A model generated the notes under the pieces. That model was given only the letters and a program-made list of their open reading frames with translations. It had not been told where the DNA came from and ran no database searches. A program made the translations under genes and the position numbers. A DNA stretch of 64,000 bases, taken from NCBI GenBank assembly GCA_028277345.1, contig JANQGM010000023.1, positions 7,895 to 71,894 on the forward strand. Reading direction: 5' to 3'. Source of the stretch: Candidatus Bipolaricaulota bacterium (GTDB lineage: Bacteria > Bipolaricaulota > Bipolaricaulia > UBA7950 > UBA9294). Shown in pieces: positions 2,385-50,198 of this stretch; within the stretch, counting starts at the first letter, position 1, and the number at the start of each line of letters is the position of its first letter.

Positions 2385-5339
2385 CTACCGGTTGACGAAC
2401 ACCTTTCCTGATTGATTGAATGTGCTTGCTCCATTCGATGCCGTGATTACGTACAGGTAGCAGCCATTGGCGACCGGCGAGCAGCGGGCGCCCTTGGTTC
2501 CGTCCCACACGATCTCGGTGGCATCCGTCACGGACAGTTCCTGGACCAAAGCACCGGAGAGGTCGTAGATCGCTAGTGCAATGGTGCTGGCAACGCCCGT
2601 TCCGTTGTAAGAGAATGCCGCATCGATCTCAAAGGGATTCGGACTCACAACAAATGATGCCACCTCAAAAGCGCTGGTCACGATGCCCACAGTATCTGAA
2701 CTCGTATCCAGCGGATTCGTCGGGTCTGTGTACGTCGCCGTCAGTTCATCTCCTGGCTGCAGATCCAGATCGATGGGCGCTGTCATGAACTCGCCACCCG
2801 TTCCCAGCGGAAGCAAATCATAGGTCATCCCTTCGATCTCAACTGCATCGGTCAGCAACGTCACACCGGCATGCGACGTATCGATGACCTTCACGTAGAC
2901 AGCATCCGCATCTAAATAGGACTCAACAGCGTGGCCAGCGTCATCGACGAACTGGGTCGTCGACTGCTGAGATGGCGGCATACCGCCTCCACCCATGCCA
3001 ACTTGAATGGAGATCATGGCAGAGTCTGAATGGTTCGAGGGATCTTGGTAAACGGCAACCAGGGTGTCGCCCGGCCACACCGCGAGCGTGGGGACACAAC
3101 TGTACTGGCTGACGAGATCGACACAGATAACGGAGACAAAGGTTCCTGTGTTGGGCCCTGTCTCAAGCAGATCGACGGCCGCCCATCCTCCGCTTCCAGG
3201 GTTGAGAATGTAGAGCTTGGGCCATGCCGCATGGTCGCCGTCCCAATCCTCGGCCCAGCATTCGCCGTCCAAACTGGTTGCAGGGCCATCGTTGAAGATG
3301 TTCGTATCGCCAAGAAGGATGTTGACGTAGTGGCCATGCCCGTCGATCTCTTCGGTCGGGCAAACAAACTCGTTAAGCGCCTGCGCACCGAAGGGAACAT
3401 TCTGGCCGCCATCCCAATAGGCATCGATTCGCTCCCGGCGATAGATATCCTCGTCCTGATCGGGGTCAATGACTTCGATGAACACACAGTCCGACGCGCC
3501 ATATTGCTCAACCGGCTGTCCCTGGCGATTGAGAAAGCGCATGTTCGTTGAGTTCCCATCGAAGACTTGCGTATCCCCGATCGAAACGGTCCCGAAACTC
3601 AGATCGTTGTGAACGCGAGCATGTCCAATCGAAGGCGGGAAAGCTGTATCGATATCACTGTCGCCAAGTCCGTTAAAATCTTGGCCCGATGAAGTCACTG
3701 CAGTAGGAGCCTGATAGTGCACATCGTTGTAGCGCGCATAAAGATCATCCTCGTTGAAGACCTCAAGCTTCCAATTGTCAAGTCGCAGCCAGAATCCCCC
3801 TGTGGAATCCGCAAATCCAATACCCAGTCCATCCCATACAGGGCGAAGCTGTGTGCCCGCGTAGGTATAGAAAACAGGGGAATTGGAACTCGATTCATCC
3901 AGAATGAGCCACTCGGCATCATCCTCGCCATGGGGGTCACAGAGGTGAACAAGCACCTGTTCGGGCGAACAGGGATCGACATTGGCGTTGGCATCGAGGA
4001 CCTGAATGTACACGGAATCGCGGCCAATCCAATACGTGTCCACATCGTCTCGCGCACTGTTGGTGAAACGCGTCACGGAATGCTGTTTTTCTTCGATGTA
4101 GGACGTTGCCAGTTTGAAGTCATCGTCATCGTTTGGATCGAGATAATAGGCCACCAGCACATCGCGGACGTTGAGGGAATTGAACCTCAAGTCCCTGGCA
4201 ATGTCATTGAAATTCAACTGGAAGACGCCGGTGTTCGCCCCCGTCTCTTGCGCATAGAAGGAGACAGGGGTCACGCCGAATTCATGAACCGGATCGAACG
4301 GAGCGTCGAAGGGATACTGAATGTAGTAGCGACCATCATCGTTTGCGCTGTTGTAGATGTTGTACCAGCGAATGCGCTGCCAGATGAGTTGGGCTGGCGT
4401 CGCCGTCGTCGCGTCGACGCCCCCTGTTGCCATCAACGTGCAGAACGTCGTTGGACTCGGTTCGGTGGCATGAAGTGAATTCCAGGACCCAGGATTGACA
4501 ATCACGAACACCGGAACGTACTCGACTTCGTTGCAATTGAGATTCTCATCCGGATCGATGACCGTGATCGTCGCCGCGCTGTGATGATCCTCGACGACTT
4601 CGCTCCTCCACGCGATCGTGGCTTCGGTATCGATGATTTTCATCATGGCGATAGCCACATCGGTGAGCTCATTGGGATCGGCATACATGCCGATGAGCGT
4701 ATTCATGTTCTCGAACCGACCGATGATGTACTCGTCGAGGCCGGCTGGGCCATCCGCCCATCGAGATGGCTCAATGCCGTATCCAGGCCATAAGAAGGGG
4801 ATCATGAGGCCGCCGATGTACTCCGGACCTGGAGCGATCCAACCTCGATTGTCCGCGTAGCCATTGGGCGGGCCACCGTACCAGTAATGGCCCCAGACGA
4901 AATCATCCGTGATGCCTTCGTCAGGCCGATCCACGACGTGCGTATGGAGATTCGGCGTGGCGGCAGCAAAGGACTCCCTTGTTCCGATCTGGAAGGCGCG
5001 ATGCGAGACAAAGACTCCGGTATCGGGACCCGTTTCTTCCAAATAGTCGTAGTCCGTGGGATCTTCCGCCTCAGGATCGAAGATCCACACGCTGAGGGCG
5101 CCGGTCTTAAAATCCATGATTTTCAGATCAGGCGACATCTTGTCGCGAACATCGCAATCGAGGTTTTGATCGTTGTCGATCACGACGATCCAGACCTCTT
5201 CGCCTTCCTGAACGTGGGTCACACGCTGTTCGCCATTCTTGTCAACCGCAAAGTACATTTCCGCGCTGGTTGCGACTGCACCAAGCGAAAGTAAAAGCGC
5301 GAACACTGACACCAACGCAACACATGCCGTCCGCCTCAC
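2385..5339 (-). CDS. Large secreted protein with a C-terminal FlgD-Ig-like / T9SS-type sorting-like domain
   Basis: The ORF reaches 5399 (TTG). AGGAGG plus a 6-nt spacer plus GTG at 5339 gives a clean signal peptide (RRTACVALVSVFALLLSLGAVATSAE). The C-terminal ~90 aa (VSPNPF...IAIYDLSGALVQEL...VWDG...GCYLYVITASNG...GKVFV) matches the FlgD-Ig/T9SS C-terminal pattern. The body is acidic and rich in D/N/W/Y. Confidence 0.7.
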   Translation of the reverse strand: MRRTACVALVSVFALLLSLGAVATSAEMYFAVDKNGEQRVTHVQEGEEVWIVVIDNDQNLDCDVRDKMSPDLKIMDFKTGALSVWIFDPEAEDPTDYDYLEETGPDTGVFVSHRAFQIGTRESFAAATPNLHTHVVDRPDEGITDDFVWGHYWYGGPPNGYADNRGWIAPGPEYIGGLMIPFLWPGYGIEPSRWADGPAGLDEYIIGRFENMNTLIGMYADPNELTDVAIAMMKIIDTEATIAWRSEVVEDHHSAATITVIDPDENLNCNEVEYVPVFVIVNPGSWNSLHATEPSPTTFCTLMATGGVDATTATPAQLIWQRIRWYNIYNSANDDGRYYIQYPFDAPFDPVHEFGVTPVSFYAQETGANTGVFQLNFNDIARDLRFNSLNVRDVLVAYYLDPNDDDDFKLATSYIEEKQHSVTRFTNSARDDVDTYWIGRDSVYIQVLDANANVDPCSPEQVLVHLCDPHGEDDAEWLILDESSSNSPVFYTYAGTQLRPVWDGLGIGFADSTGGFWLRLDNWKLEVFNEDDLYARYNDVHYQAPTAVTSSGQDFNGLGDSDIDTAFPPSIGHARVHNDLSFGTVSIGDTQVFDGNSTNMRFLNRQGQPVEQYGASDCVFIEVIDPDQDEDIYRRERIDAYWDGGQNVPFGAQALNEFVCPTEEIDGHGHYVNILLGDTNIFNDGPATSLDGECWAEDWDGDHAAWPKLYILNPGSGGWAAVDLLETGPNTGTFVSVICVDLVSQYSCVPTLAVWPGDTLVAVYQDPSNHSDSAMISIQVGMGGGGMPPSQQSTTQFVDDAGHAVESYLDADAVYVKVIDTSHAGVTLLTDAVEIEGMTYDLLPLGTGGEFMTAPIDLDLQPGDELTATYTDPTNPLDTSSDTVGIVTSAFEVASFVVSPNPFEIDAAFSYNGTGVASTIALAIYDLSGALVQELSVTDATEIVWDGTKGARCSPVANGCYLYVITASNGASTFNQSGKVFVNR

Positions 5340-5516
5340 GAGAAGCCTCCTTCGAGATCGAACACATGGGAGGAGAAGAACCCCCGTCGCCCCTCTCAAA
5401 GCGGCAATTCATGCAAGATCGCCGCTCCCGATGACTGTAGGGGCAACGCCAACGCGAAGTCAAGGGATTTGCTGCATGATCGCATAGAGTATGATGAGCC
5501 TCGAATGGGAGGACGC

Positions 5517-6657: not shown

Positions 6658-7839
6658 GTGGATGAAACGTCGTTACCACAGCCCGGCGGTCGGCGTCGCG
6701 CCATACCGCTGGCTATCTCGTCGCTGTTTGTCGCCACATCGTTGGGTGGGATCGGCCTCGTCGTTCAGCTCTACCTCAAATCCCTCGACACGCCGCTGTT
6801 TCTGATCAGTCTGTCTACAACGATTCACGGCGTGGGGATGTTAGTCGGGTCTTGGTTGTGGGGAACAGCATCCGACCACATCAAGCGCCGACGCTTGTTG
6901 GCATTTCTGACCTTGAGCATGTCGGCATGCCTGGGCGTGCTCATCTTTCTTCCCCCCATCGAGGTCGTGTTGATCGCAGGCGCCCTCCGATCGATGATGT
7001 TCGCGGGCACTGGTGTGGTCGCCGTTGCCGTTGTCTCCGCATCCAGCCTCGTTCAACGGCGAGGCAAGAACCTCTCCTACATTTCATCCGCCAAGGCATT
7101 GGGATTCGCCGCCGGAAACGTGCTGGCAGGGCTCGCGCTGGCGCAACTTGGATTCCGTCCCACCTTCATCCTTTACGCGATGCTGCCGTTGCTGGCCTTT
7201 GCCGCCGTCTGGCTGTTGCCCTCGGAGAACCCTGTCGTTCACAAGAACCGGGTCAATGCCTGGCGCGCCATCTTCTCCTCCGGGTTGCTCGACCTGTACG
7301 TGGCGACAGCGCTTCGCCAGATGGCCATTTTCGGAACCTTCTCGTTGCTCTACGTCTACATGGAAGAAGTTGGCATCCCCATTAGCATCATGGGCATCAT
7401 CAGCGCCACCAATACGGCGACTCAGACGCTGGCCATGCTGGTGTTCGGCTGGTTGGCCGATCGAATCGGCCGCCGCCGCATCTTCATGCTCGGCTTCTTC
7501 CTGTCGGCAGCGGTGCCCCTCTTTTTCGTCTTCGCCGCCAACATTCCCGGTATGATCGTTGGCTACATCACGCTGGGCTTGTCGTTCAGCTCTCTGTACG
7601 TCGGATCGGCCGCGCACATCGGCGATCGCGTCCCCCATCACCGGCATGGGCAGATGCTGGGATTGTACGAGTCGTCTCGCGGGCTGGGGGGGCTGTTCGG
7701 TCCGATCATTGCGGGGGCGATTACCCCGCTTGTCGGGTTCAAGGGCATGTTCTTGGTCATGTCGGGAATCGCAGGGCTCGGATTCGTTGTCATGATCCTC
7801 GGCAACACGGTGATGGGAAAGCGAATCGTCGGCAACTAG
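6658..7839 (+). CDS. MFS transporter
   Basis: 393 aa with about 12 hydrophobic segments. MFS-type loop motifs (WGTASDHIKRRRLL and GWLADRIGRRRIF, the D-R/K-x-G-R-R/K pattern in both halves). GTG start. Confidence 0.8.
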   Translation: MDETSLPQPGGRRRAIPLAISSLFVATSLGGIGLVVQLYLKSLDTPLFLISLSTTIHGVGMLVGSWLWGTASDHIKRRRLLAFLTLSMSACLGVLIFLPPIEVVLIAGALRSMMFAGTGVVAVAVVSASSLVQRRGKNLSYISSAKALGFAAGNVLAGLALAQLGFRPTFILYAMLPLLAFAAVWLLPSENPVVHKNRVNAWRAIFSSGLLDLYVATALRQMAIFGTFSLLYVYMEEVGIPISIMGIISATNTATQTLAMLVFGWLADRIGRRRIFMLGFFLSAAVPLFFVFAANIPGMIVGYITLGLSFSSLYVGSAAHIGDRVPHHRHGQMLGLYESSRGLGGLFGPIIAGAITPLVGFKGMFLVMSGIAGLGFVVMILGNTVMGKRIVGN

Positions 7840-8609
7840 GGCTGCATGCCTTCGTGTTCCCCCATGAGCCCGCTTCGAAATGCATCGATCAGCTCGCGTG
7901 CTTCAACCCCTTCGATGACCTTGTCTTTCAGACGAAGGTCTTCCATCAGCGTGTCGACCGAGTTTTGAATGGCCGTTCTCCCTTCGAGGGATAGTGTCTT
8001 TCCAGCATCCATTCCAGCGAGCAGTGCGCCTCTCAGATCGATGTCGAGGTCTCCATATTTCTCGTAGTCGAGTTCGAATCTCCGGCTCCCGCCTTCCTCG
8101 TAGGACAGCATGGCGTACAGCGCATCGTCAAGATCGTCTCTCCGGGCGGGAATGACGGACGTACCGAGTTTCACGGCAATCAGCAAGAACAACGGTGCGA
8201 TACGTGTTCTACAATCCCCCAAGTCAAAATCGGTTGCGTGTCCCACAGATTCCGGAACCCCAGCGGCGGAAATCGTCCCGCCCAGTTGTTGCGGTATTTC
8301 GTGTGTGGGCGTCCAGTCCGGATCAAATCCCAGCACGTCCACATCCATGCCGCCCGGCGTACGGAATCTGTGCTCCGCCTCTGTGTCACGCAATCCATGC
8401 GAAATCAAGAGTGTACGAATGGCTCCCACACCTCCTGCAGCGGCGATGGCAAGATCCAGGTCGCGTGTCCCACGAATAAACCGGGGGTCCTGAAGCAGCA
8501 ACGCCGTCGCCCCGATGACGGCAAAGGGAATGCCCTCGCGCGTCAGCAGCTTGGAGAGGTCGCAGAGCGTTTCGCGAACAGCCGGACTCAATTGCTGGAC
8601 AAGGTCCAT
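7836..8609 (-). CDS. Nucleotidyltransferase-fold protein, AbiEii/DUF1814-like (putative type IV toxin)
   Basis: 257 aa. Minimal pol-beta NTase motif IGATALLLQDPRFIRGTRDLDLAI (G-[AS]...DxD). GAGGAG RBS lies inside the end of the upstream gene, with a 22-nt overlap. Gene order matches abiEi-abiEii. Confidence 0.55.
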   Translation of the reverse strand: MDLVQQLSPAVRETLCDLSKLLTREGIPFAVIGATALLLQDPRFIRGTRDLDLAIAAAGGVGAIRTLLISHGLRDTEAEHRFRTPGGMDVDVLGFDPDWTPTHEIPQQLGGTISAAGVPESVGHATDFDLGDCRTRIAPLFLLIAVKLGTSVIPARRDDLDDALYAMLSYEEGGSRRFELDYEKYGDLDIDLRGALLAGMDAGKTLSLEGRTAIQNSVDTLMEDLRLKDKVIEGVEARELIDAFRSGLMGEHEGMQP

Positions 8610-9682
8610 GCAAGGTACTCCTCTCTAAGCCGCATTGCCGTTTCGGCAAGCCGCCGATGCTCGCCTGCCATCAACTCGGCATAGATCAGAGCCGGGTGGG
8701 CGATTTTCGTTTCCCTTCGTGACGATTTGTATCTCAAGTTAGTGGCGAAGCAATCCCTAAGCTCAATGTTGCCCTCTCTTGACGGTACAAGTCGGAGTCG
8801 GTTTCTCACCTCATCCGCCGCCTTCTTCGGAACGTATAGATGCACGCGGCTACCTCGCAGGTAGCCGGTAAGGAGATCAGCTGCATACTCCCCACCCACA
8901 ACGACTCCTTTGAGGAGATCCGCAGATTCAAACAGTGCTCCAAGATTTTCGCCACTCGGTGACGTGAACCGTCCAAACTGTACGTTTGGAGCGAGTTGCC
9001 CTGCATAGTCATCGCACCAGTGTTCGAGCACCTTGTCCGGTTCAATGATCCTGTAGGCACCTCGTCCGGCTCGGCGAAGAAGGTCTTGCTCGCGCCATAT
9101 CGAGAAGAGCTTGGATACAACTCCGAGTGAGATGCCTGATGCATCGACCAGATCGCGATAGGTGGCCTCGACGTCGGGACCGCTACGAACAAGCTGAAAC
9201 AGCAGTTTCGCGGACTGCTCACTTGAGCGCCATCCGACCGAACGTTTGGGTTCATGCGCAAGCTTGCGGCCGGTGACGAACAACAGCAGTTGGCCTGTCA
9301 AGTCAATGTGGAGATTCCCTGCCGAGTCAACAAACCACATGTGCCTGGCCTTTAGTTCCTGGGCCAACGGCTCGGTGATAGACTCCGTGACAACCAAGAA
9401 ATCGGCTTCGGGATCACTACGCTTGCACTGGTCCCTGAGGTACTCAAGCTCAGGCAAGTGTGCTGGTCTCAATGTACGTTTGATCTCAACAAAGACCTTG
9501 ATGTTTACATCTTGCGCACGTTGCAGCTGGATCATCGCATCAATTCGATTCGCGAGGTCGGGCGGAATCCGGCCTCGCTTGACCTTCGCTTCAACAGCGG
9601 TCCCGATTTCGGTGATCGCCTTCCTCATTATCTCAGCCTCTTGTTTGTTCATGATCATCGCCTGTTCACGTGACGTGAACAT
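8588..9682 (-). CDS. AbiEi-like wHTH antitoxin/transcription regulator with an extra N-terminal module
   Basis: 364-aa maximal ORF. The promoter -10 box abuts ATG 9682, so the real start is more likely ATG 9658 or 9652 (MIMNKQEA). Central wHTH-like segment (YRDLVDASGISLGVVSKLFSIWREQDLLRRAGRGAYRI). The C-terminal half resembles the AbiEi C-terminal domain. The N-terminal ~130 aa (VFVEIKR...FLVVTES...WFVDSAGNLHI) is not part of canonical AbiEi. Confidence 0.5.
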   Translation of the reverse strand: MFTSREQAMIMNKQEAEIMRKAITEIGTAVEAKVKRGRIPPDLANRIDAMIQLQRAQDVNIKVFVEIKRTLRPAHLPELEYLRDQCKRSDPEADFLVVTESITEPLAQELKARHMWFVDSAGNLHIDLTGQLLLFVTGRKLAHEPKRSVGWRSSEQSAKLLFQLVRSGPDVEATYRDLVDASGISLGVVSKLFSIWREQDLLRRAGRGAYRIIEPDKVLEHWCDDYAGQLAPNVQFGRFTSPSGENLGALFESADLLKGVVVGGEYAADLLTGYLRGSRVHLYVPKKAADEVRNRLRLVPSREGNIELRDCFATNLRYKSSRRETKIAHPALIYAELMAGEHRRLAETAMRLREEYLAWTLSSN

Positions 9683-15396: not shown

Positions 15397-15579
15397 CTAG
15401 TCGGGCGATGAGTATCCAGTGAGAGTCCAAGTGAATTGAGTATTGTGTCCCCGGAATTCCTGAGCTTTGGTCAGTAGATTCGAAAGGAGTTCTTCTGCTT
15501 GCGGAGCGTTGCCAACGCAATTCTGGCATTTGATCGGATTAATCCTCAATCGCCATTCGGAACCTTCTTCATACCCCAA
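15397..15579 (-). CDS. 60-aa ORF downstream of the ATPase gene, possibly a remnant or small third component
   Basis: Starts 28 nt after the ATPase stop, on the same strand, within the low-GC patch. Contains a single CQNC. No RBS or family recognised. Confidence 0.2.
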   Translation of the reverse strand: MGYEEGSEWRLRINPIKCQNCVGNAPQAEELLSNLLTKAQEFRGHNTQFTWTLTGYSSPD

Positions 15580-15606
15580 CCTAATCTTTGCGTCGAACCC
15601 TTAGAC

Positions 15607-18600
15607 TCAACGTGGCAGTTCGATCGACCGAAACGCCTCTCCCAAGAAGTCGAATTTCCTTCGGAATAAGCTTGACAGCTTGGGATCCGCAGTTGCGAGA
15701 AAAACCTGCTTGTCAGAGTTTCTTACAATCAGTCGAAGAACATCGAAAAACGCCAATGCATTTAGGTCATCGAAGTACATCAATGGCTCATCAAGCAAGA
15801 TGTATGGTGGAGCAGTAGTTACACAGCTATTCATTGCGAGAAACAGTGAAAGCGCCAGTGCTGCTCTCTGCCCCGCACTAAGGCGTGTGATCGGAAGCAG
15901 ACTTCCTTGCTCTCTGGGGACGGCCACTAGTCCGGATTTTCTCAACTTGATTCCGCTGAAATCCCTTGGCCAGCAAAGAATGGAGAATAACTCGTCAAGC
16001 AGCTCAAGGCTGGACTCCAAATACATCCCAACAATCTTTGTCCCGCTGCTTGCCCCCTCAATTATTGATTGAAGAACCTCCTGCCAAGACTCAATAGACT
16101 CGCAGATTCTTTTCTCTTCTCTTGCCTTTTCGTGCGCTGTGTCCGCTTGGCGTTCTAGTCGTCGAACTAACAGGCTGGCTGCTTTCGATGAATCGCTATC
16201 TCTTCTGTATGCACTAATTCGAGCTGCGATCTTTCTCAGCAGTTCGAGGGAATCGCCCACGGTTTGTCTCCCCGCGTCACCAGCGATTTCAAGAAGCCCA
16301 TTACCAAGGTCAGCGATTTCCGCCAATTTGTCCTCAATGTGAGAGATTCGCTTCTTGACGTCCATCTCTCCGAACGGAATTCTGGCTTTCTGAAGGATCT
16401 CCTTAACCTCGGAGTTGATGTTCGAGATTCTCAACTCGGTTGATTCAATATCACTTTCTACTTGAACGAGACTGAGTTGGGTCTCTTGAAACTGCGAATC
16501 GTATTTCACGAGGTGCTCTGAGCCCACCTTCAGTTTCGGATAGCGCTTGGTTATCTCGTCTTCTAGTTCAGCTAGCCTGACTTCAGTTAGACCTCTCGAT
16601 TCCAGATCAGTGCGAACTGATTTCAGTTCCAGCAGCGTGTTCTCATAACGTGTAAGAGCAGAGCGAAATGCCCGAAACCTCCTGTTGAGATCACGGATTC
16701 CAAGATCGTCAACAAACACATCTGGAAGCAGGCGTTTGGCAGCAACCTGGGCAGTTTGAAGAATGTGCAATCGGCGCTGTATTTGGTCAATCTGTTTCAG
16801 GTGCTCCGCTCTATCAAGCTCAAGATCAGCCAAAGAGGAGGCCAAGGCATCATCAGTCCGAAGATCCATAACTCGACGTTCAAGTTCGTCCCGTTGATAA
16901 GAGTGATTACACAACGGACATTCTTTTCTATCCGGTTGGATATTCAGTATTTCTGTTCCCGAGGAGATCAGCTCCTCGAGCAATCTCGTGATCTCCCCTG
17001 CTTTGTTGCGCAATCGCTCAAGCTTCTCAGATCTCCGCTGCTGTGCTGCACTCTCTCTGCGCAGTTCACTACGAGTGTCAGCAATCAGTTTGCCAATGGC
17101 CTCTTGCCCCGCAATTGCATTTGCAAAGCCTATCTCGTCTACATCCTTCAGCGAGGATGAGATATGTTGAATTTGCTCCGAAACGCTTTCTATTTGCTGA
17201 GACAGCCCGATTAGCTCGCCTCCATTGGGAGCAGACATGTACTTCCTGAGTTCCTCCAGCGTTTCGAGCGATTGCTGCAAGATTGCTGCATCTGTGCGAT
17301 CCTTCTTCAACTTCGATTCCAGTTTTCCTAGCTCTATATCCCTGATTTCTACATGTGAAGCGATCTGCCTAAACTCCCCCCGTTCTTCATCAACCTCACG
17401 GAGTGGAATATCGAGAAGCCACGGATTTGCAGAGCCAACCAACTCAATGCGATCTATCAGAGTTGGGATCTTAGTTTCCAACTCTTGTATTCCCTCCTGA
17501 GTCTCCAACCACTCGGCATTGATCTTGAGGCTTTTGAGTTCATTTCGGAGATTAGGGAAGAGGGAACTTTCAAACCCAGTGGCTTCATCTCTTGCTTGTG
17601 TCAAACTCGATCGAATCCGAGCGCGCTCATGAGAATACTGCTCCAGAAGCCGTTCGTGAGATCGTAGCCTCTCTGCTAATCGACTTCCAATGCCTCTTGC
17701 CCGCTCTAGGATGATAGCAGCCTCACGACCAAGCACGAGACCTTCCAATGCCCGACCGATTTCATCTCGCCCAGTGCTTTTGGCCAGCCTTGTCGCTGCA
17801 TCTGTGTCAAAAAAGTTGAATCTCCCAAAGGCTTCGTGAAGTCTATTGGTTCTGGATTTGTGAATCCCATACCAAGAGAGTGCCCGGGAACGGTACTCAG
17901 CGGGCTTGAGAGATCGATTCCATCTATATCTCCTAGCTCCCGCAAATCTTAATCCAATCTGCCTTATCGCCTCAGGATCCTTTGGGTTTCGATAGGTCTT
18001 CCCGCACGTCCAAAGCTCAATGGCCTCGAGCAGCGATGTTTTGCCTGCTCCATTTCGGCCAGCAATCAGATTTACTTGTCCGAAATCAAACACCTTGTTT
18101 TGAAGACAGGGCCTGTATTTCCGAAGAGACATGGATCGAATGCTATGAACTGAGTTCTTCGGGGCAATCTGAATGGGAGATCCCGAAGAAGGATTCACAC
18201 CTTTAATCGGGCTCCCTTCCATGAGTCGACCAACAACTTTGTCCATCGCCTCCGATTCGATATATACGCCATCAAGATCTGCATTGTGCAATCGTTGGAT
18301 CCAATCACCAATCAGATCTGGAGGGGCAATGGACAAAGAGGATCTCAGCTTGTCGAATCTCCTCGGAAGCTCTGAGAACACCTCAGATTCAGCAACCACA
18401 AGCTTTCTTGCGTATGTCAGATCCTCTTCAAGTTCAGTAGCGAAGCCAGAGGTTCGAATTGCACGACACTGCTCTTCTGGATAAACGAGAACCAAATAGA
18501 GATTCCACTTCAGCGCACCTGGAGAAGAGTAATACTCTTCGCTAAGTGTAGTATCCTGGTATTCCTTAAACTTCTCTTGCGATGTAATGGATGACGCATC

Positions 18601-18750
18601 AGATTCGATAAAAAGCTTTCCGGCCAGTCCATTGGAGAAAAACGGGGCAGACACTAGATGGTCATTCACCAGTTTGGGAGACGATGCAAAAGATGATACG
18701 ACTTGCAGAATTCTGCTCGTTCTAGAAGTCATGTTCTCGATTGATTGCAT
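15607..18750 (-). CDS. Rad50/SMC-like ABC ATPase with central CxxC hook motif and an uncharacterised N-terminal module
   Basis: Maximal ORF 15607-18768 (1053 aa). The best RBS (GAGGA, 5-nt spacer) favours ATG 18750; other in-frame ATGs are at 18768 and 18732. Walker A GRNGAGKT (18037-18060) appears only at aa 237. About 700 aa of charged, heptad-like sequence follow, with CPLC (16909-16920, aa 617-620) near the midpoint. LSAGQR signature (15865-15882), Walker B YILLDEP (15784-15804). Confidence 0.85.
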   Translation of the reverse strand: MQSIENMTSRTSRILQVVSSFASSPKLVNDHLVSAPFFSNGLAGKLFIESDASSITSQEKFKEYQDTTLSEEYYSSPGALKWNLYLVLVYPEEQCRAIRTSGFATELEEDLTYARKLVVAESEVFSELPRRFDKLRSSLSIAPPDLIGDWIQRLHNADLDGVYIESEAMDKVVGRLMEGSPIKGVNPSSGSPIQIAPKNSVHSIRSMSLRKYRPCLQNKVFDFGQVNLIAGRNGAGKTSLLEAIELWTCGKTYRNPKDPEAIRQIGLRFAGARRYRWNRSLKPAEYRSRALSWYGIHKSRTNRLHEAFGRFNFFDTDAATRLAKSTGRDEIGRALEGLVLGREAAIILERARGIGSRLAERLRSHERLLEQYSHERARIRSSLTQARDEATGFESSLFPNLRNELKSLKINAEWLETQEGIQELETKIPTLIDRIELVGSANPWLLDIPLREVDEERGEFRQIASHVEIRDIELGKLESKLKKDRTDAAILQQSLETLEELRKYMSAPNGGELIGLSQQIESVSEQIQHISSSLKDVDEIGFANAIAGQEAIGKLIADTRSELRRESAAQQRRSEKLERLRNKAGEITRLLEELISSGTEILNIQPDRKECPLCNHSYQRDELERRVMDLRTDDALASSLADLELDRAEHLKQIDQIQRRLHILQTAQVAAKRLLPDVFVDDLGIRDLNRRFRAFRSALTRYENTLLELKSVRTDLESRGLTEVRLAELEDEITKRYPKLKVGSEHLVKYDSQFQETQLSLVQVESDIESTELRISNINSEVKEILQKARIPFGEMDVKKRISHIEDKLAEIADLGNGLLEIAGDAGRQTVGDSLELLRKIAARISAYRRDSDSSKAASLLVRRLERQADTAHEKAREEKRICESIESWQEVLQSIIEGASSGTKIVGMYLESSLELLDELFSILCWPRDFSGIKLRKSGLVAVPREQGSLLPITRLSAGQRAALALSLFLAMNSCVTTAPPYILLDEPLMYFDDLNALAFFDVLRLIVRNSDKQVFLATADPKLSSLFRRKFDFLGEAFRSIELPR

Positions 18751-20494
18751 CCCTGTCCTCGCTTCCATCTGTGATTATTGGTTCCACATGATCCGTGATC
18801 GGTAGATTCCCTTCCGGGGTTGCATGCCAGATTACAAGTCGCTTTTCATCATCAATCGCTTTCTTGGCCAGTGCGAAGTGCCTTTGGGCCTGTGTATCGC
18901 TCTTGTGACCTATGAATGCGACTGTTGCTCCAGTCTCCCTAACAGGATCGTATACGTTCTGTCTAATCTTCCGCTGGGCACTAGACATCCGCCGCAGACC
19001 TTTACCCGCCAAGTCTCTTATACAGATTGGGAGATCCTCGACAGGGCCCGTCAGAATTGTCTGCAATGCATCGAATCTCGCGTAGGTATCCGTCCTGAAC
19101 ACCTCGGAATCCTCATGAGGGTCTTGAGCAACTGCGAGTCGGAATGATATCCTTCTTCTATCTGAACGCATTGACCTCAAATTCTCCACTTTATCCCAAT
19201 CTGTTGTTGTGAGAGCAGCAAGGCAACCACTAGACAGCAGCAAGAGCCTCTCTCTGTCTACAACAGACATACTCTCAAGCAACGAAAGATCAAAGCTATG
19301 GCCATCCCTCAAGCACATATCAACATATCCATCGTCAGCTTTGTTTGCCTCAGTCCAGGTTGTGGTTGCCCTATCCCAAGAGTAGAGAACGGGTCTGAAC
19401 GGCCCGGTTCTACCATTCCCCTGCGCAGGTCCTCGTGATCCCTTTTGCGACGGTTTGTGCTGTTGCACCATGAAGACATGCTCATTGTAATTGAGGGAAT
19501 ACATATGGGCACTTGGCTCATAACAGCGTATGTAGTACAACCCCTTGTCATGCAAGGCTTGTATATGTAGATCACTGGTATCCGCGCTTGGCGCTCGAGT
19601 CAGGATAGTCGATCCCCCGTAGGGCGATCGAGATTTATCATGTGCAAAAACGAAATCCCTCGCCCAGTTAACCGAGAGGAATTCAACATGCACTGCGTCA
19701 TGATCATACAAATGACTGCGGAATGAGATAAAGCTAGTATGAGTCGGAGCAACGCATAGCTGGAGATGAACCACGAGCCACGGAGTGTGATAATCGGTTG
19801 ACCACGCCTCGTTTTTGAGATCTCCCAAGCTGTCTGAACAGATTAGCGGCACAAGCTTAATGGTGTTTTGATCTTTGGGATTGCGAAAGATAAACCGTGT
19901 GCTTCCCAATATCAGATTGTCAGGCTCAAATCGGTATTCCTTGTCAGCCATTTCCTGGCCTTTGAACTGAACAACAACCACGATTCGCATCTGTCCGCTC
20001 TTGTCCTTCAAAGAGAAGACACAACACACAGGGTCCAGGTATCCTTTCTGGTTTTCCGGGGTGTCCAACGTTTCGTCATATATCCAAACTATTTCAGGAT
20101 GTGATTCGATCAGGCTCTTGAGCGAATCTGGACGGATGCCTTCGCACCCCATGAGCCAAAGCGTTCCTTGTTTCGGAGCGTTGCCCCTCCGCAGCAGACG
20201 ATCGACAACTTCCCACGGGCACGAATACTCCGGAATGACCGCCAAGTCTGGATTCTCTTGCAGTGCAAGCTCGAGAAAGCTCTCATGTTTCTTTGGCGCC
20301 AATCGCCTATTTAAGTTGCGGACCACGTTGCTGACTTCGATCGGTCCTTGAGGCTGAAGTATCAGCGTTTTGTATCGAGCAGTGTTTGGTTTCAGAAACG
20401 GAAAGCCGGGTTGCGTAAATCCCTTCTGCGACAAGCGCTCGTCAACATACACGCATTCCACGCAACCACTCCTAATTACATGAAACGAAGTCAT
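18722..20494 (-). CDS. 590-aa protein: N-terminal nitrilase/CN-hydrolase-like domain (inferred) plus an unknown C-terminal domain
   Basis: Motif order matches the CN-hydrolase fold: TLILQPQG (first strand), DLAVIPEY (Glu, aa 89), VVVVQFKGQEMADKEY (Lys 178 or 185), KLVPLICSDSLGD (Cys 219, nt 19838-19840). The C-terminal ~280 aa has no motif I recognise. Its stop lies inside the ATPase gene. Confidence 0.75.
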   Translation of the reverse strand: MTSFHVIRSGCVECVYVDERLSQKGFTQPGFPFLKPNTARYKTLILQPQGPIEVSNVVRNLNRRLAPKKHESFLELALQENPDLAVIPEYSCPWEVVDRLLRRGNAPKQGTLWLMGCEGIRPDSLKSLIESHPEIVWIYDETLDTPENQKGYLDPVCCVFSLKDKSGQMRIVVVVQFKGQEMADKEYRFEPDNLILGSTRFIFRNPKDQNTIKLVPLICSDSLGDLKNEAWSTDYHTPWLVVHLQLCVAPTHTSFISFRSHLYDHDAVHVEFLSVNWARDFVFAHDKSRSPYGGSTILTRAPSADTSDLHIQALHDKGLYYIRCYEPSAHMYSLNYNEHVFMVQQHKPSQKGSRGPAQGNGRTGPFRPVLYSWDRATTTWTEANKADDGYVDMCLRDGHSFDLSLLESMSVVDRERLLLLSSGCLAALTTTDWDKVENLRSMRSDRRRISFRLAVAQDPHEDSEVFRTDTYARFDALQTILTGPVEDLPICIRDLAGKGLRRMSSAQRKIRQNVYDPVRETGATVAFIGHKSDTQAQRHFALAKKAIDDEKRLVIWHATPEGNLPITDHVEPIITDGSEDRDAINREHDF

Positions 20495-20505
20495 CCATCT
20501 GGAAG

Positions 20506-20534
20506 ACTATACAAATCTAGCTTATCCAGCGCAA
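20506..20534 (-). promoter_or_regulatory. Putative promoter of the low-GC two-gene cassette (TTGCGC-17-TATAGT)
   Basis: Read on the minus strand: -35 at 20534-20529, 17-nt spacer, -10 at 20511-20506, which is 11 nt upstream of ATG 20494. This implies a very short leader. Confidence 0.4.
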
Positions 20535-20537
20535 CAC

Positions 20538-20565
20538 TTGACACTCTTTGGCGTACTAGTATACT
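20538..20565 (+). promoter_or_regulatory. Near-consensus sigma70 promoter (TTGACA-16-TATACT) facing the ytrA-type operon
   Basis: -35 at 20538-20543 and -10 at 20560-20565. Back-to-back with the minus-strand promoter (3 nt between the two -35 boxes). The spacer contains ACTAGT/GTATAC palindromic elements. Confidence 0.45.
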
Positions 20566-46343: not shown

Positions 46344-49300
46344 ATGATTCGACCGGCCGGAAGATGCCTCGCGACACTCATCCTCGTCCTTACCGTCTGC
46401 TCCCTATGCGGATGGGGGGCGGAGATCGTCGTTTCTCTCAATGGTGAAGGCGCCTTCACGTCGATTCAGCGCGCACTCGATGCGGCGAACTACGGCGATG
46501 TCATTCGGATCAACCCCGGCATCTATGAGGAAACGCTGATCCTCAAGTCCGGGGTGACACTCTCCGGCGCCGGTCGTGCAAGTACGGTGATTCGGAGCAG
46601 CTATGGATACGATCCCGTGATTCGCGGGCGCATCGTGGGCGCCGTCACTCTCAGTAACCTGACCATCGAACGCACAGCCACCCTGTTGGCCGCCCCAGTG
46701 ATCGATCTCGAATCATCGGATGTCGTGTTCGATAACTGCATCATCCGAGGCGGGCAAGCCGGGGGGGTTCGCTCGATTGGAACGGCGCGGCTTGAGATGA
46801 TCGACTGTACCATCACGAACAACGACGGCTTCGGCGTTCAAGTATCCGATGGCGGCCGGTTGGAGCTCTTTCGTTCGACGTTGCAACAGAACGACGGTCC
46901 CGGCCTTCATCTCGCTCAAGCCGTCGCCCAAGCCAGCGACGGCTCGATGGAATGGAATGAGACGCACGGCGTGCTGATGGAGGCCGGCAGCACCTTCAGC
47001 GGACAAGACCTTACGATTGCCAACAACGGACGATGGGGCATCGAGTGCGGGGGCACCTCGTCGTTCGAGCTTTCGAGGACCGAGCTATCGACACAGGCCC
47101 TGGGCAATGTCCTGCTCGAAGATCATGCGCAAGCATCATTCGATCGCTGTGACCTCAGCGGAGGACAACGCGCGGGCATCGAAGCCAGGGCAGATAGTTC
47201 GATCGACCTTCTTCGATCCTCGGTTCTGTCTGCGGCAGGAGACGGCCTGCTCCTGTCCGATCACACGGCACTTTCAATGAACTACGGGACCCTTGCGCAT
47301 TGTCAAGGAACGGGAGTCTCGGCGACCACGGAGGGCGTCGTCGCGATCATGCGATCCACGCTCTCATCCAATGGCGGCGATGGGCTGTTCTTCAAGGGCT
47401 CAGAGATCACGGTTTCTCACAGCCAAATCACGCTCAATGCGGGAATCGGATTGAACATACAGTTGACCCATCTTGTCGGCTCCACCCAGGATTTCTCCTA
47501 CAATAACGTCTGGGGAAATCGCGCCGGCGAGTTCTCTGGGATCAACCCCTCTTCTTCGGACAGCTCCATGGCTCCGGAGTACGCCGCCCCTGAAAACGGT
47601 AACTTCTCCCTGTTGCTCGATTCACCCTTCAGCACGGCGGGGCAATATGGCACACCCATTGGCGCTGCCGCCAATCCGCAGTGGGAGCGCGGCGCACGTG
47701 GAAGTCTCGGTTTCACGCGCCATGAAACGCCCCTTGGAGACTGGGAGGCCTCGGTCGATTGGATGGGGGAACGATCGCAGCCATCCCAGGGAACGGTGCG
47801 TTGGGACCTCGATGGAGAAGGGGTTCAGGCCGGCATTCTGTCGCAATGGGCCTGGCTTTCGCATCAGCGGACGAAGTTGACGATCGCCTATGCGCCATCT
47901 CAGCCCCGTGAGAGCCGTCCGGGCGTGCTCCATCCCTCCCTTGGCATTCGCGGCGTCCTCGATGGAGACGCCTCGCGATGGAGCGCATGGGGAGATTTGA
48001 GCATTGTCGGGCGCGCATCCGTGCTGCGTGTGGCGACCTCCTACGAACTCCCCACCGGACGTTCGATCCAGCGCCTCGCGCTTGATTTTCGCAACCTCTC
48101 TCTCAGTGCCGATGCCACCGGGTTTCTCCTCAACGATCTGGCGATCAGGTGGGCCCAGGAGTTCGACCACCCTCGGTTTGCACTGTCACTCAGTGCCAGT
48201 CTGGACCTCATTCCTCAGTCCCGCGCCGTCCTTCGCGCGCGCTGGCCCTTTCAAGAAGGAACCGCCTCACTGCAAGCCGAGACCTACCTGGAGCAGTGGA
48301 CGACGTCTTCGTTTCGCTTCGACTGGACGGATTCAAGCACCCTCGATCTCTCCCTGGCGCTCGCACTGCGCGAAGGCCGTTTCGATGATCTCGAAATCGA
48401 GTCGCGAATTCGGGCTCGTGGGTGGACCCTGTCCGGGCTCGTCGGCACGCATGCACTAGAAGGTCCCCGCCTGCGCATCGCGCTGACGCTGGCCATGTCC
48501 AGCTGGTTTCTGCCTCGTCCGAATCAACCACCCCTCCCGGCGCTTTCGATCCGTCCTTCCGAACCCGAGGCCGGCGAGCTCATCTACTTCGATGCCTCGG
48601 AATCGCTTGATCCCGATGGAATGATCGATCAGATCTGGTGGGAGTTTGGAGATGGCGGTGTCGCCATCGGAGAGCGCGTTCAGCATACCTACGCCGACCC
48701 AGGCCAATACTCGCTGACCCTTCTCATCTCCGATGACAACGGCGATGTGACATCGCACGTCAGCACAATTCGCATTGTTGAACGAAGGTCGACGCCGGCA
48801 GCCTCCTTCATCTGGGCGGCCGCAAGTCCGGACGGCACTCGGCTGCCGCACCCTGCGCGCGCCGGCGACTATGTGCTGCTCGATGCCGCGGAGTCCTATG
48901 ACCCGGACGGCAGCATCGTCGAATACGGATGGGACTTCGACTCCGACGGCGTCTTCGACCGAACGACGGCTGAACCACGGGTGTTGCGAGAACCGTTCTC
49001 CGCGGGCTCCTGGCCGATCACCCTCCGCGTGGTGGACGATGCGGGACATGCGGACTCCATCATGCGCGTTGTCCTCATCGAGGAGCGCAAGCCTCCTGAG
49101 GCAGGATTTGAGTTATCCCCGACGAACCCTGCGGTCGCGGATCCCATTCGAATCAGCGATGCGTCAATTCCACGGGACCACCCGATCGTGGCGTGGAACT
49201 GGGACTTCGGAGACGGCAAGGCCTCGGATCTTCGCGAGCCCACGCACCGATTCATGAACAGCGGGATCTATACGGTTCAGCTCACGGTGCGCGATGCCTT

Positions 49301-50198
49301 CGGTCTTGAATCCACGTTCAGTCGGCGGATCACGGTGGCCGAAAACCCCGAGCTCGTCGCTATCCAGGACGTCTGGTTACTGGCGATCGGCATTTCCAAC
49401 TACGCGGAGGTTGAGGACCTGTCCTATGCTGACCGGGATGCTCAGGCGATGCTGGAGTGGTGGATCTCGAACGGGGTGAATCCCGAAAACGCCCGCTGGC
49501 TCACGGACCGGAAAACCTCACTGGTCCTGGAGGGCGGTGTGACGCTGTCCTCCCAGCTTGCCACCTTGGTCAACGTTCGCGCCGCATTGGGTTGGCTACG
49601 ACAGAATGCGCGCCGAAACGACCTCGTGATCATTCACTTCTCAGGCCATGGGTATCAGGGAGTGGATGACAATGGCGACGAGCGCGACGGCGTCGACGAG
49701 TTCTTCGTTCTGTACGATACCGCCGCCGCCGCAAAAGACGATACCGCCTTGCGCGACGATGAATTCGGACGCTTCCTCGATCGTATCGAATCTCAGCATG
49801 TCCTCGTCTTCTTCGACAGCTGCTACTCAGGAGGCCTCTCGCGCAGCTTGACCCCCGGATCTCGGACGACGAGCGACGACATCGACGTGTTCAGCGATTT
49901 CCAGCTTGAGGGCAGGTTGATTTTATCCGCATCCTCGGAGAATCAGGATGCCTTCGAATCTCCCCAACTTGAGCACGGCGTTCTGACGCATTTCTTGCTC
50001 GAAGGATTGAACGGCCACGCCGACCTCAACACAGATGCCCATGTGACGGTCTGGGAGTTGTTCGAGTACGTTCGCGCTGAAGTGTCCACATTCGTGAAAA
50101 ACGAACGTGGAGAGGTTCAAACCCCGCAACTCATGGGAGAGGGGGAGTCTCGGGTCGTGCTGCTTCGAACACAACCCGAGGCCTCGGATCGCGACTAG
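46344..50198 (+). CDS. 1284-aa secreted multidomain protein: parallel beta-helix repeats, middle region, PKD domains, C-terminal caspase-like (C14) domain
   Basis: Signal peptide (LILVLTVCSLCGWGAE). Repeated beta-helix turns (aa ~30-430). Three PKD-like units (WEFGDGG...HTYADPGQYSLTLLISDDNG; WDFDSDG; WDFGDGK...GIYTVQLTVRDAFG). Caspase dyad IIHFSGHG (His codon 49647-49649) and FFDSCYSGG (Cys codon 49821-49823). Confidence 0.8.
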   Translation: MIRPAGRCLATLILVLTVCSLCGWGAEIVVSLNGEGAFTSIQRALDAANYGDVIRINPGIYEETLILKSGVTLSGAGRASTVIRSSYGYDPVIRGRIVGAVTLSNLTIERTATLLAAPVIDLESSDVVFDNCIIRGGQAGGVRSIGTARLEMIDCTITNNDGFGVQVSDGGRLELFRSTLQQNDGPGLHLAQAVAQASDGSMEWNETHGVLMEAGSTFSGQDLTIANNGRWGIECGGTSSFELSRTELSTQALGNVLLEDHAQASFDRCDLSGGQRAGIEARADSSIDLLRSSVLSAAGDGLLLSDHTALSMNYGTLAHCQGTGVSATTEGVVAIMRSTLSSNGGDGLFFKGSEITVSHSQITLNAGIGLNIQLTHLVGSTQDFSYNNVWGNRAGEFSGINPSSSDSSMAPEYAAPENGNFSLLLDSPFSTAGQYGTPIGAAANPQWERGARGSLGFTRHETPLGDWEASVDWMGERSQPSQGTVRWDLDGEGVQAGILSQWAWLSHQRTKLTIAYAPSQPRESRPGVLHPSLGIRGVLDGDASRWSAWGDLSIVGRASVLRVATSYELPTGRSIQRLALDFRNLSLSADATGFLLNDLAIRWAQEFDHPRFALSLSASLDLIPQSRAVLRARWPFQEGTASLQAETYLEQWTTSSFRFDWTDSSTLDLSLALALREGRFDDLEIESRIRARGWTLSGLVGTHALEGPRLRIALTLAMSSWFLPRPNQPPLPALSIRPSEPEAGELIYFDASESLDPDGMIDQIWWEFGDGGVAIGERVQHTYADPGQYSLTLLISDDNGDVTSHVSTIRIVERRSTPAASFIWAAASPDGTRLPHPARAGDYVLLDAAESYDPDGSIVEYGWDFDSDGVFDRTTAEPRVLREPFSAGSWPITLRVVDDAGHADSIMRVVLIEERKPPEAGFELSPTNPAVADPIRISDASIPRDHPIVAWNWDFGDGKASDLREPTHRFMNSGIYTVQLTVRDAFGLESTFSRRITVAENPELVAIQDVWLLAIGISNYAEVEDLSYADRDAQAMLEWWISNGVNPENARWLTDRKTSLVLEGGVTLSSQLATLVNVRAALGWLRQNARRNDLVIIHFSGHGYQGVDDNGDERDGVDEFFVLYDTAAAAKDDTALRDDEFGRFLDRIESQHVLVFFDSCYSGGLSRSLTPGSRTTSDDIDVFSDFQLEGRLILSASSENQDAFESPQLEHGVLTHFLLEGLNGHADLNTDAHVTVWELFEYVRAEVSTFVKNERGEVQTPQLMGEGESRVVLLRTQPEASDRD

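Follow-up and report, generated by a model that had tools for sequence, protein, structure and literature searches.

A predicted nitrilase-fold LmuA-like protein and its SMC-like partner as a probable two-gene Lamassu defence system

Introduction

What does a protein with the motifs of a nitrilase do next to an SMC-like ATPase? The question is raised by a window of 64,000 nucleotides from a Candidatus Bipolaricaulota bacterium (contig JANQGM010000023.1), in which the gene for a 590-residue protein lies immediately upstream of the gene for a Rad50/SMC-like ABC ATPase, both on the minus strand. An earlier sequence-only reading of this DNA had proposed a nitrilase fold for the N-terminal half of the protein, followed by a C-terminal domain of no recognizable kind. 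Here we propose that the two genes are likely to form a compact Lamassu (ABC-3C) defence system, with the nitrilase-fold protein as the LmuA effector and the ATPase as the sensor.

Enzymes of the nitrilase superfamily act through a Cys thioester, assisted by a Glu, a Lys and a second Glu, and nitrilase-fold enzymes require oligomerization for activity. Lamassu systems are present in roughly 10-15% of prokaryotic genomes, and their mechanism is understood only for nuclease effectors. LmuA combines an N-terminal effector with a C-terminal domain that binds the coiled coils of LmuB; one inactive LmuA monomer is held per LmuB dimer together with LmuC, the complex recognizes DNA ends or replication intermediates, and freed LmuA oligomerizes and is active (10.1101/2025.04.02.646746; 10.1101/2025.06.23.660979). 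Lamassu defence is abortive, and both the ATPase and the catalytic residues of the effector are needed for it (10.1101/2025.04.02.646746; 10.1101/2025.06.23.660979).

Results

Effector family and conserved residues

The open reading frame (ORF) of 590 residues is present on the minus strand at 18722-20494, and the four motifs from which a nitrilase had been proposed are all found in its translation: TLILQPQG (residues 43-50), DLAVIPEY (83-90), IVVVVQFKGQEMADKE (171-186) and KLVPLICSDSLG (213-224), with the codon of the presumed nucleophile C219 at nt 19838-19840, as had been given. The features of the effector gene used below are as follows.

18722..20494, minus strand: LmuA-like effector gene, 590 residues as an ORF and 579 from the probable GTG start
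19451..20377, minus strand: predicted nitrilase/CN-hydrolase-fold domain, residues ~40-348 (AlphaFold2 model, Foldseek, consistent hhalign register)
20228..20230, minus strand: E89, candidate catalytic Glu (PEYSCPW motif), in strand 84-92, aligned with PE42 of YafV
19961..19963, minus strand: K178, candidate catalytic Lys (VQFK), directly after strand 169-177
19925..19927, minus strand: E190, candidate second Glu of an E-K-E-C tetrad, aligned with E116 of YafV
19838..19840, minus strand: C219, candidate nucleophile Cys (LICSD), where strand 213-218 passes into helix 219-223, aligned with C141 of YafV
18725..19447, minus strand: family-specific C-terminal domain, residues 350-590, presumed to dock on LmuB (model confidence 82.6, see below)

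A word-indexed search for homologues returned 13 relatives only; an exhaustive profile search collected 728 cluster representatives (50% identity) at E<=0.001, 418 of them at E<=1e-30. Since nearly all members are 560-600 residues long and match the profile from end to end, the effector family is a large and coherent one with a two-domain architecture.

Conservation was measured in a MAFFT alignment of 158 representatives, one per 50%-identity cluster. Seven residues are invariant: P88, E89, K178, C219, Q245, N276 and W277, with counts of 155/155 for E89, 157/157 for K178 and 158/158 for C219. E190 is retained in 157 of the 158 sequences (99.4%), the single exception being an Asp; Q47 is conserved to 99.4% and Q176 to about 99%. 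E190 follows K178 by 12 residues, which is where the fourth tetrad residue is located in the nitrilase superfamily, and the four counterparts in Escherichia coli YafV are E42, K107, E116 and C141. The Glu, Lys, second Glu, Cys order of the superfamily is thus both present and conserved. The alignment of homologues that had been called for to check E89, K178 or K185, and C219 bears out the Glu and the Cys, decides for K178, and adds E190 to the set; K185 is not conserved among homologues and was therefore discarded as the catalytic Lys.

Predicted fold of the N-terminal domain

The fold was predicted with AlphaFold2 from an alignment of 13 sequences, with no templates. In the full-length model (m1e95b379785c), residues 10-180 have a predicted local distance difference test score (pLDDT) of ~85-93. 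When the model was compared with the PDB using Foldseek, the top 42 matches all belonged to the nitrilase superfamily, with E values from 1.5e-6 to 1e-2, probabilities of 0.97-1.00 and template modelling (TM) scores, normalized to the target, of about 0.4-0.58. The best match is mouse Nit2 (2w1v; E 1.5e-6), and the others include formamidases (AmiF), Cj1056c, the glutaminase domains of NadE/NAD synthetases, carbamoylases and a plant nitrilase. The next fold class, represented by purple acid phosphatase and Mre11, first appears at E 0.12. The nitrilase fold suggested by the four motifs is thereby corroborated at the level of predicted structure.

Secondary-structure assignment of the model with DSSP places E89 within strand 84-92, K178 immediately after strand 169-177, and C219 where strand 213-218 meets helix 219-223, forming a nucleophile elbow; these are the positions expected for the three residues in the nitrilase superfamily. 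The prediction supports the assignment of residues ~40-348 as a nitrilase-fold domain, highly divergent and with its E89-K178-E190-C219 set intact.

The partner ATPase

The gene downstream of the effector encodes Walker A, Walker B and signature motifs and a zinc hook, listed here with the domain fused to it.

15607..18768, minus strand: predicted LmuC (MComp1)-LmuB fusion, Rad50/SMC-like ABC ATPase, 1053 residues (1047 from the called start, M7)
18337..18576, minus strand: MComp1 (ABC-3C middle component 1, LmuC-like), ATPase residues 65-144, Pfam PF20289
18037..18060, minus strand: Walker A motif, GRNGAGKT
16909..16920, minus strand: single zinc hook, CPLC, ATPase residues 617-620, in the middle of the coiled coil
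15868-15882, minus strand: ABC signature, LSAGQ
15787-15804, minus strand: Walker B motif, YILLDE, with the canonical catalytic Glu

The protein matches the PADLOC models for LmuB (E 2.9e-33) and the Pfam families SMC_N, AAA_15 and MComp1, the last (PF20289) with an E value of 1.9e-7 and 31.2 bits against a cut-off of 27.3; the MComp1 region is also found in homologues of the ATPase. Its closest relatives among PDB sequences are archaeal Rad50 heads (E 2.7e-6), and the ATPase part spans about 850 residues with one hook. As judged from these matches, the downstream gene is a Lamassu LmuB with an LmuC-like MComp1 domain fused at its N-terminus. Such a fusion of LmuC to LmuB would account for the conservation of just two genes at these loci.

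The effector ORF overlaps that of the ATPase by 47 nt, or by 29 nt when counted from the called ATPase start. The effector itself probably starts not at the first codon of the 590-residue ORF but at a GTG (V12) at 20461, which gives 579 residues, because (i) an AGGAG lies 7 nt 5' of this GTG, (ii) the public gene call for an identical protein (P0001) is 579 residues long and (iii) the N-termini of homologues begin at the V12 position.

Synteny and distribution

The two genes are found together across phyla in strict synteny. All six metagenome loci examined have the same ATPase of ~1050 residues directly downstream of the effector, often with overlapping ORFs. Among 58 loci in GTDB species genomes, a homologue of LmuB is detectable in 52, and in 51 of the 58 it follows the effector gene immediately, in the same orientation; of the six loci without LmuB, at least four stop at the LmuA match or no more than ~1 kb away from it, and in one LmuA is truncated. 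Clustering of all ORFs of these loci gave the effector and the ATPase as the only conserved genes, the other clusters being shadow ORFs within them, and no third conserved gene was found among the flanking ORFs. A few loci depart from the regular arrangement: in one (L019:188-5344) the LmuB homologue is on the strand opposite LmuA, and in two others (L002, 9758-12847, and L003) two ORFs, of 353 and 659 residues, take the place of a single LmuB gene, any of which could reflect a rearrangement, a frameshift or an assembly error.

Bacterial carriers include members of the Bacillota, Bacteroidota, Verrucomicrobiota, Actinomycetota, Planctomycetota, Acidobacteriota, Nitrospirota, Campylobacterota and, in many cases, the Pseudomonadota; among archaea the pair occurs, for example, in Hodarchaeota, in Nitrosopumilus and on a plasmid of a haloarchaeon. 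Pseudomonas donghuensis HYS and Afipia broomeae ATCC 49717 are examples of cultured carriers. In Polaromonas naphthalenivorans the pair is encoded on the conjugative plasmid pPNAP01 (NC_008757.1 299906-304725; WP_011798038/WP_011798039), and the haloarchaeal plasmid copy (NZ_CP031308.1 71316-76009) is located between a site-specific integrase and a gene of the PD-(D/E)XK nuclease family. In RefSeq the effector is a "hypothetical protein" (WP_011798038, WP_006065893), and the partner is an "AAA family ATPase" with the Gene Ontology (GO) term double-strand break repair.

Genes found next to the pair elsewhere encode Wadjet JetC/JetD, an Mrr endonuclease, a CHAT protease, a TrwC relaxase, a type IV secretion system coupling protein and an integrase. 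This setting of Wadjet, Mrr, plasmid, integrase and relaxase neighbours suggests a role of the pair in defence. Two of the neighbourhoods are of separate note: in a Bifidobacterium metagenome-assembled genome (L016:1104-10796) the pair directly follows Wadjet JetC and JetD, so that two SMC-type defence systems are adjacent, and in Arcobacter (L023) a second SbcC/LmuB-like ATPase of 1193 residues is encoded just upstream of the pair.

The C-terminal domain

Since the nitrilase-like domain reaches to about residue 348, the C-terminal part measures about 240 residues; the ~280-residue domain from about residue 300 that had been described begins near 350, and the remark that it resembles nothing familiar holds for solved structures. 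Residues 350-590 were modelled separately from 39 sequences, giving a confident prediction (m23e4aa028531; pLDDT 82.6) with a β-hairpin, several helices, of which one is long, and a small β-α-β unit. As judged by its position and by the architecture of LmuA, the domain is probably the docking domain for LmuB.

The sole recurrent Foldseek matches of the domain, none of them significant (E 0.13-1), are to endonucleases of the PD-(D/E)XK type, namely influenza PA-N, the Cas4-family ACE1 and a tRNA-splicing endonuclease. A PD-(D/E)XK nuclease was considered for the domain and rejected, because the matches are non-significant (influenza PA-N at E 0.13) and no acidic or Lys motif is conserved.

Genomic setting in the window

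The pair occupies an island of low guanine-plus-cytosine (GC) content.

15500..20550, no strand assigned: two-gene island of low GC content (48.8%; flanks 57-58%)

No att-like repeats, tRNA or integrase were found around the island, and promoter and terminator signals are not above background. Its neighbours within ~5 kb encode an aldolase, an FMN reductase, a GntR-like regulator and an ABC transporter, and AlaRS and DnaE are encoded 14-20 kb away.

Three other loci in the window are recorded as side observations. An AbiEi_2 antitoxin-like gene at 8588-9682 on the minus strand (Pfam E 4e-23) overlaps a downstream ORF of 257 residues (7836-8609, minus strand); about 6 kb from the island, the two (7836-9682) could be a type IV toxin-antitoxin or abortive-infection pair, and neither product matches PADLOC. 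An ORF of 1004 residues at 2385-5399 (minus strand) has no Pfam (E<=1e-5) or PADLOC match. A protein of 1284 residues at 46344-50198 (plus strand) combines a right-handed β-helix, three PKD domains and a C-terminal caspase (Peptidase_C14).

Discussion

Evidence against the proposal

Several observations weigh against a nitrilase-fold LmuA in a Lamassu system, and they concern the fold, the C-terminal domain, the ATPase and the genomic context. Concerning the fold, the full-length AlphaFold2 model is of moderate confidence overall (mean pLDDT 68.6), with residues 230-345 at 55-78. The single 590-residue protein has no Pfam, NCBIfam, PADLOC or PDB-sequence match, and a profile of 13 sequences has no match among PDB sequences. 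The Pfam CN_hydrolase family (PF00795) is not matched by the query and is touched by one of 78 family members only, at E 0.067, and the profile-profile alignment with nitrilases described below has a low probability of about 14%. Furthermore, E89 and K178 are 89 residues apart, compared with 65 for the corresponding residues of YafV, which implies an insertion. Concerning the C-terminal domain, its model finds nothing significant in the PDB with Foldseek (best E 0.13, TM <= 0.33), none of the Pfam ABC-3C C-terminal domain families is detected among 78 members, no PADLOC LmuA model is matched (E<=1), and its docking role is assigned from position alone. In the ATPase, the Walker B motif is hhhhDE, versus the hhhhDD reported for the long Lamassu class (10.1101/2025.04.02.646746). 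Finally, searches of phage records and IMG/VR contigs turned up no relative, and the flanking genes tested in the window are housekeeping genes with no PADLOC match.

Alternative explanations

Among the alternatives, the one that survives best accepts the nitrilase fold and denies the hydrolytic toxin: the domain could be an acyltransferase like Lnt, or a structural oligomerization scaffold, with the output of the system located elsewhere. The nitrilase superfamily does contain acyltransferases with the same E-K-C triad, and Lnt, placed in branch 9 of Pace & Brenner, is an E-K-C enzyme that moves acyl chains; the nitrilase domains of DRT1, a reverse transcriptase-nitrilase fusion discussed below, form the core of an oligomer; and the effector sequence is too divergent to be assigned to a nitrilase branch. 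We nevertheless regard this explanation as unlikely. The near-absolute retention of four catalytic residues in 158 diverse sequences argues for chemistry rather than mere scaffolding, neither membrane segments in the effector family nor a second effector gene are conserved, and the known N-terminal domains of LmuA are all enzymes whose catalytic residues are required for defence.

Another explanation holds that the nitrilase match is convergent or an artefact of modelling, so that the N-terminal domain would be a new Cys-dependent enzyme fold in which the E/K/C order is coincidental. It draws on the first AlphaFold2 model having been built on 13 sequences and on the outcome of the sequence-level searches, all of which are without a nitrilase match: a profile of 141 sequences gave one sub-threshold match among PDB sequences (E 0.53), and neither the gathering threshold of PF00795 nor a PDB sequence match indicating nitrilase membership was reached. 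The reference for the hhalign comparison combined YafV itself with four or five nitrilases of the PDB and with 79 relatives of YafV; the latter came from a metagenome scan, and a homologue search with E. coli YafV itself yielded near-identical enterobacterial sequences only. The resulting alignment is weak (E 0.002, probability 13.8%, over residues 180-254), and it pairs C219 with YafV C141 and E190 with E116; when extended, it also pairs PE89 with YafV PE42 and the first-strand Q47 with the Gln of the family. As controls, the C-terminal half of the effector gave E 0.62 and a reversed template E 0.1.

Block-shuffled templates score about as well as the true one, since most of the signal resides in individual short motifs, which favours coincidence; DLxVxPE by itself keeps a score of about 28 at whatever position it is placed. 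Because motifs survive block shuffling, such templates are not a valid null and were dropped in favour of column shuffles, of which the best of 30 scores 23 against the real score of 30.8, so that none (0/30) reaches the observed value. The constant score of DLxVxPE at any place means that the alignment consists of two separate local similarities, one at PE and one at E..C, and these are colinear with the order in the true template. Taken with the 42 consecutive nitrilase-superfamily matches obtained from a template-free model, and with each catalytic residue at its expected secondary-structure position, these results make a convergent or artefactual match very unlikely.

The least credible alternative is a housekeeping or mobile repair module of the SbcCD/Mre11-Rad50 type, with the upstream gene encoding a degenerate Mre11/SbcD-like phosphoesterase, also an α-β-β-α sandwich: the order of a sandwich-fold protein followed by a zinc-hook Rad50-like ATPase is that of sbcD-sbcC, SbcCD has been proposed as the ancestor of Lamassu, the GO term of the ATPase is one of repair, and Mre11 and purple acid phosphatase do occur among the Foldseek matches, if only at E 0.12-0.2, but the phosphoesterase was rejected on the Foldseek ranking, in which nitrilases lead Mre11 by about 5 orders of magnitude, and on the pattern of invariant residues (E, K, E, C, Q, N-W), which has none of the conserved Asp/His metal-binding motifs of calcineurin-like phosphoesterases, while the LmuB matches and the ABC-3C MComp1 domain of the ATPase, together with a patchy distribution of the pair on a low-GC island and on plasmids, argue against the module as a whole.

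A possible mechanism

Returning to the proposal of a Lamassu system with a nitrilase-fold LmuA, a mechanism can be sketched by analogy with the systems already described. In uninfected cells, the C-terminal domain would park inactive, monomeric LmuA on a dimer of the LmuC-LmuB fusion. Sensing by LmuB/LmuC of DNA ends or replication intermediates of a phage or plasmid would release LmuA, and the freed nitrilase domain would self-associate and thereby complete its active site. A non-peptide C-N (amide-type) bond of an essential molecule would then be hydrolysed via a thioester intermediate on Cys219, and the infected cell would stop growing, as in abortive infection. As for the substrate, our guesses are NAD+, amides of the glutamine/asparagine type, or a protein or lipid amide.

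It is possible, if somewhat doubtful, that a nitrilase LmuA represents an abortive-infection chemistry new to defence, namely a thiol-dependent reaction that deamidates an essential amide-bearing molecule or cleaves a C-N bond in it. Conversion of NAD+ to its acid form, depletion of glutamine/asparagine pools, or attack on a protein or lipid amide would be examples of such chemistry, with release from the SMC-like sensor followed by self-assembly as its switch.

The family spans bacteria and archaea with its 728 clusters at 50% identity and is not seen by Pfam, NCBIfam or PADLOC; given this, and the designation "hypothetical protein" in RefSeq, current defence-system finders probably miss such systems. 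A two-gene operon with invariant catalytic residues offers an easy handle on the substrate, and it could show whether "release and oligomerize" is a general rule for Lamassu effectors.

Comparison with known systems

The system has the architecture of Lamassu/ABC-3C. Its ATPase is an SMC/Rad50-like LmuB with Walker A and B motifs, signature, coiled coil and a single CxxC hook; with an ATPase part of ~850 residues and one hook it resembles the long Lamassu class (10.1101/2025.04.02.646746), from which its Walker B motif sets it apart. The MComp1 module is of the LmuC type, the effector gene lies immediately upstream of the ATPase gene and overlaps it, and the effector, like LmuA, joins an N-terminal enzyme to a non-catalytic C-terminal domain in which helices and β-sheet are mixed, as in the C-terminal domains of long LmuA. 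Unlike the usual Lamassu, LmuC is here fused to LmuB, leaving two genes; and, unlike in described systems, the effector matches neither the PADLOC models of LmuA nor the Pfam C-terminal domain families, and no homology of this LmuA to the described LmuA and C-terminal domain models was detected.

The pairing of a CN hydrolase with an SMC-like ATPase had been described as unfamiliar from established defence systems. There is a precedent: a 2023 review names "C-N hydrolase" among the N-terminal effector domains of LmuA in Lamassu/ABC-3C and cites the 2020 ABC-3C classification and the 2022 expansion of Lamassu for the LmuA domains (PMC10586767). A 2025 survey of RefSeq genomes distinguishes nine types of Lamassu effector, with no nitrilase among them (10.1101/2025.04.02.646746), and the term "Lamassu-Amidase", a DefenseFinder subtype name, gave no match in the literature or among the supplements to Millman et al. 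Because a C-N hydrolase is already listed among Lamassu effectors, the present protein is a new, unannotated case of a nitrilase LmuA within an already known kind of defence system. It stands out by the LmuC-LmuB fusion, by a nitrilase domain that has diverged to an extreme degree and by the unmatched C-terminal domain.

Compared with nitrilases such as Nit2/omega-amidase YafV, AmiF and the NadE glutaminase, the effector shares a predicted four-layer sandwich, the Glu-Lys-Glu-Cys order, a Cys at a strand-helix elbow, and motifs that resemble xLxVxPE and hICxD. It differs from them in its identity of about 12-15% to the best structural matches, below the threshold of PF00795, in invariant residues of its own (Q245 and N276-W277), in the additional domain of 240 residues, and in a genomic context of defence and mobile DNA rather than metabolism. 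With SbcCD/Mre11-Rad50 the locus shares a zinc-hook Rad50-like ATPase encoded after a sandwich-fold enzyme; unlike the enzyme of that module, the effector has none of the metal-binding motifs of phosphoesterases, and its match to nitrilases is much the stronger.

Defence systems seldom have a nitrilase-fold effector. Only that of DRT1, a class 3 UG/Abi reverse transcriptase-nitrilase fusion, has been studied (2026), and its substrate is still sought. The DRT1 nitrilase effector needs oligomerization (PMC13275509), and DRT1 was not among the Foldseek matches listed for the effector model. In both systems a nitrilase-fold domain is the presumed abortive-infection effector, that of DRT1 being held inactive until infection (PMC13275509). 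The sensor or regulator of DRT1, however, is a reverse transcriptase with a DNA adduct on the same polypeptide, whereas here it would be a separate SMC-like ATPase. If the nitrilase LmuA does carry out a chemistry of the new kind considered above, the family would provide a second, independent and genetically simpler way into the question, raised by DRT1, of what defence nitrilases hydrolyse.

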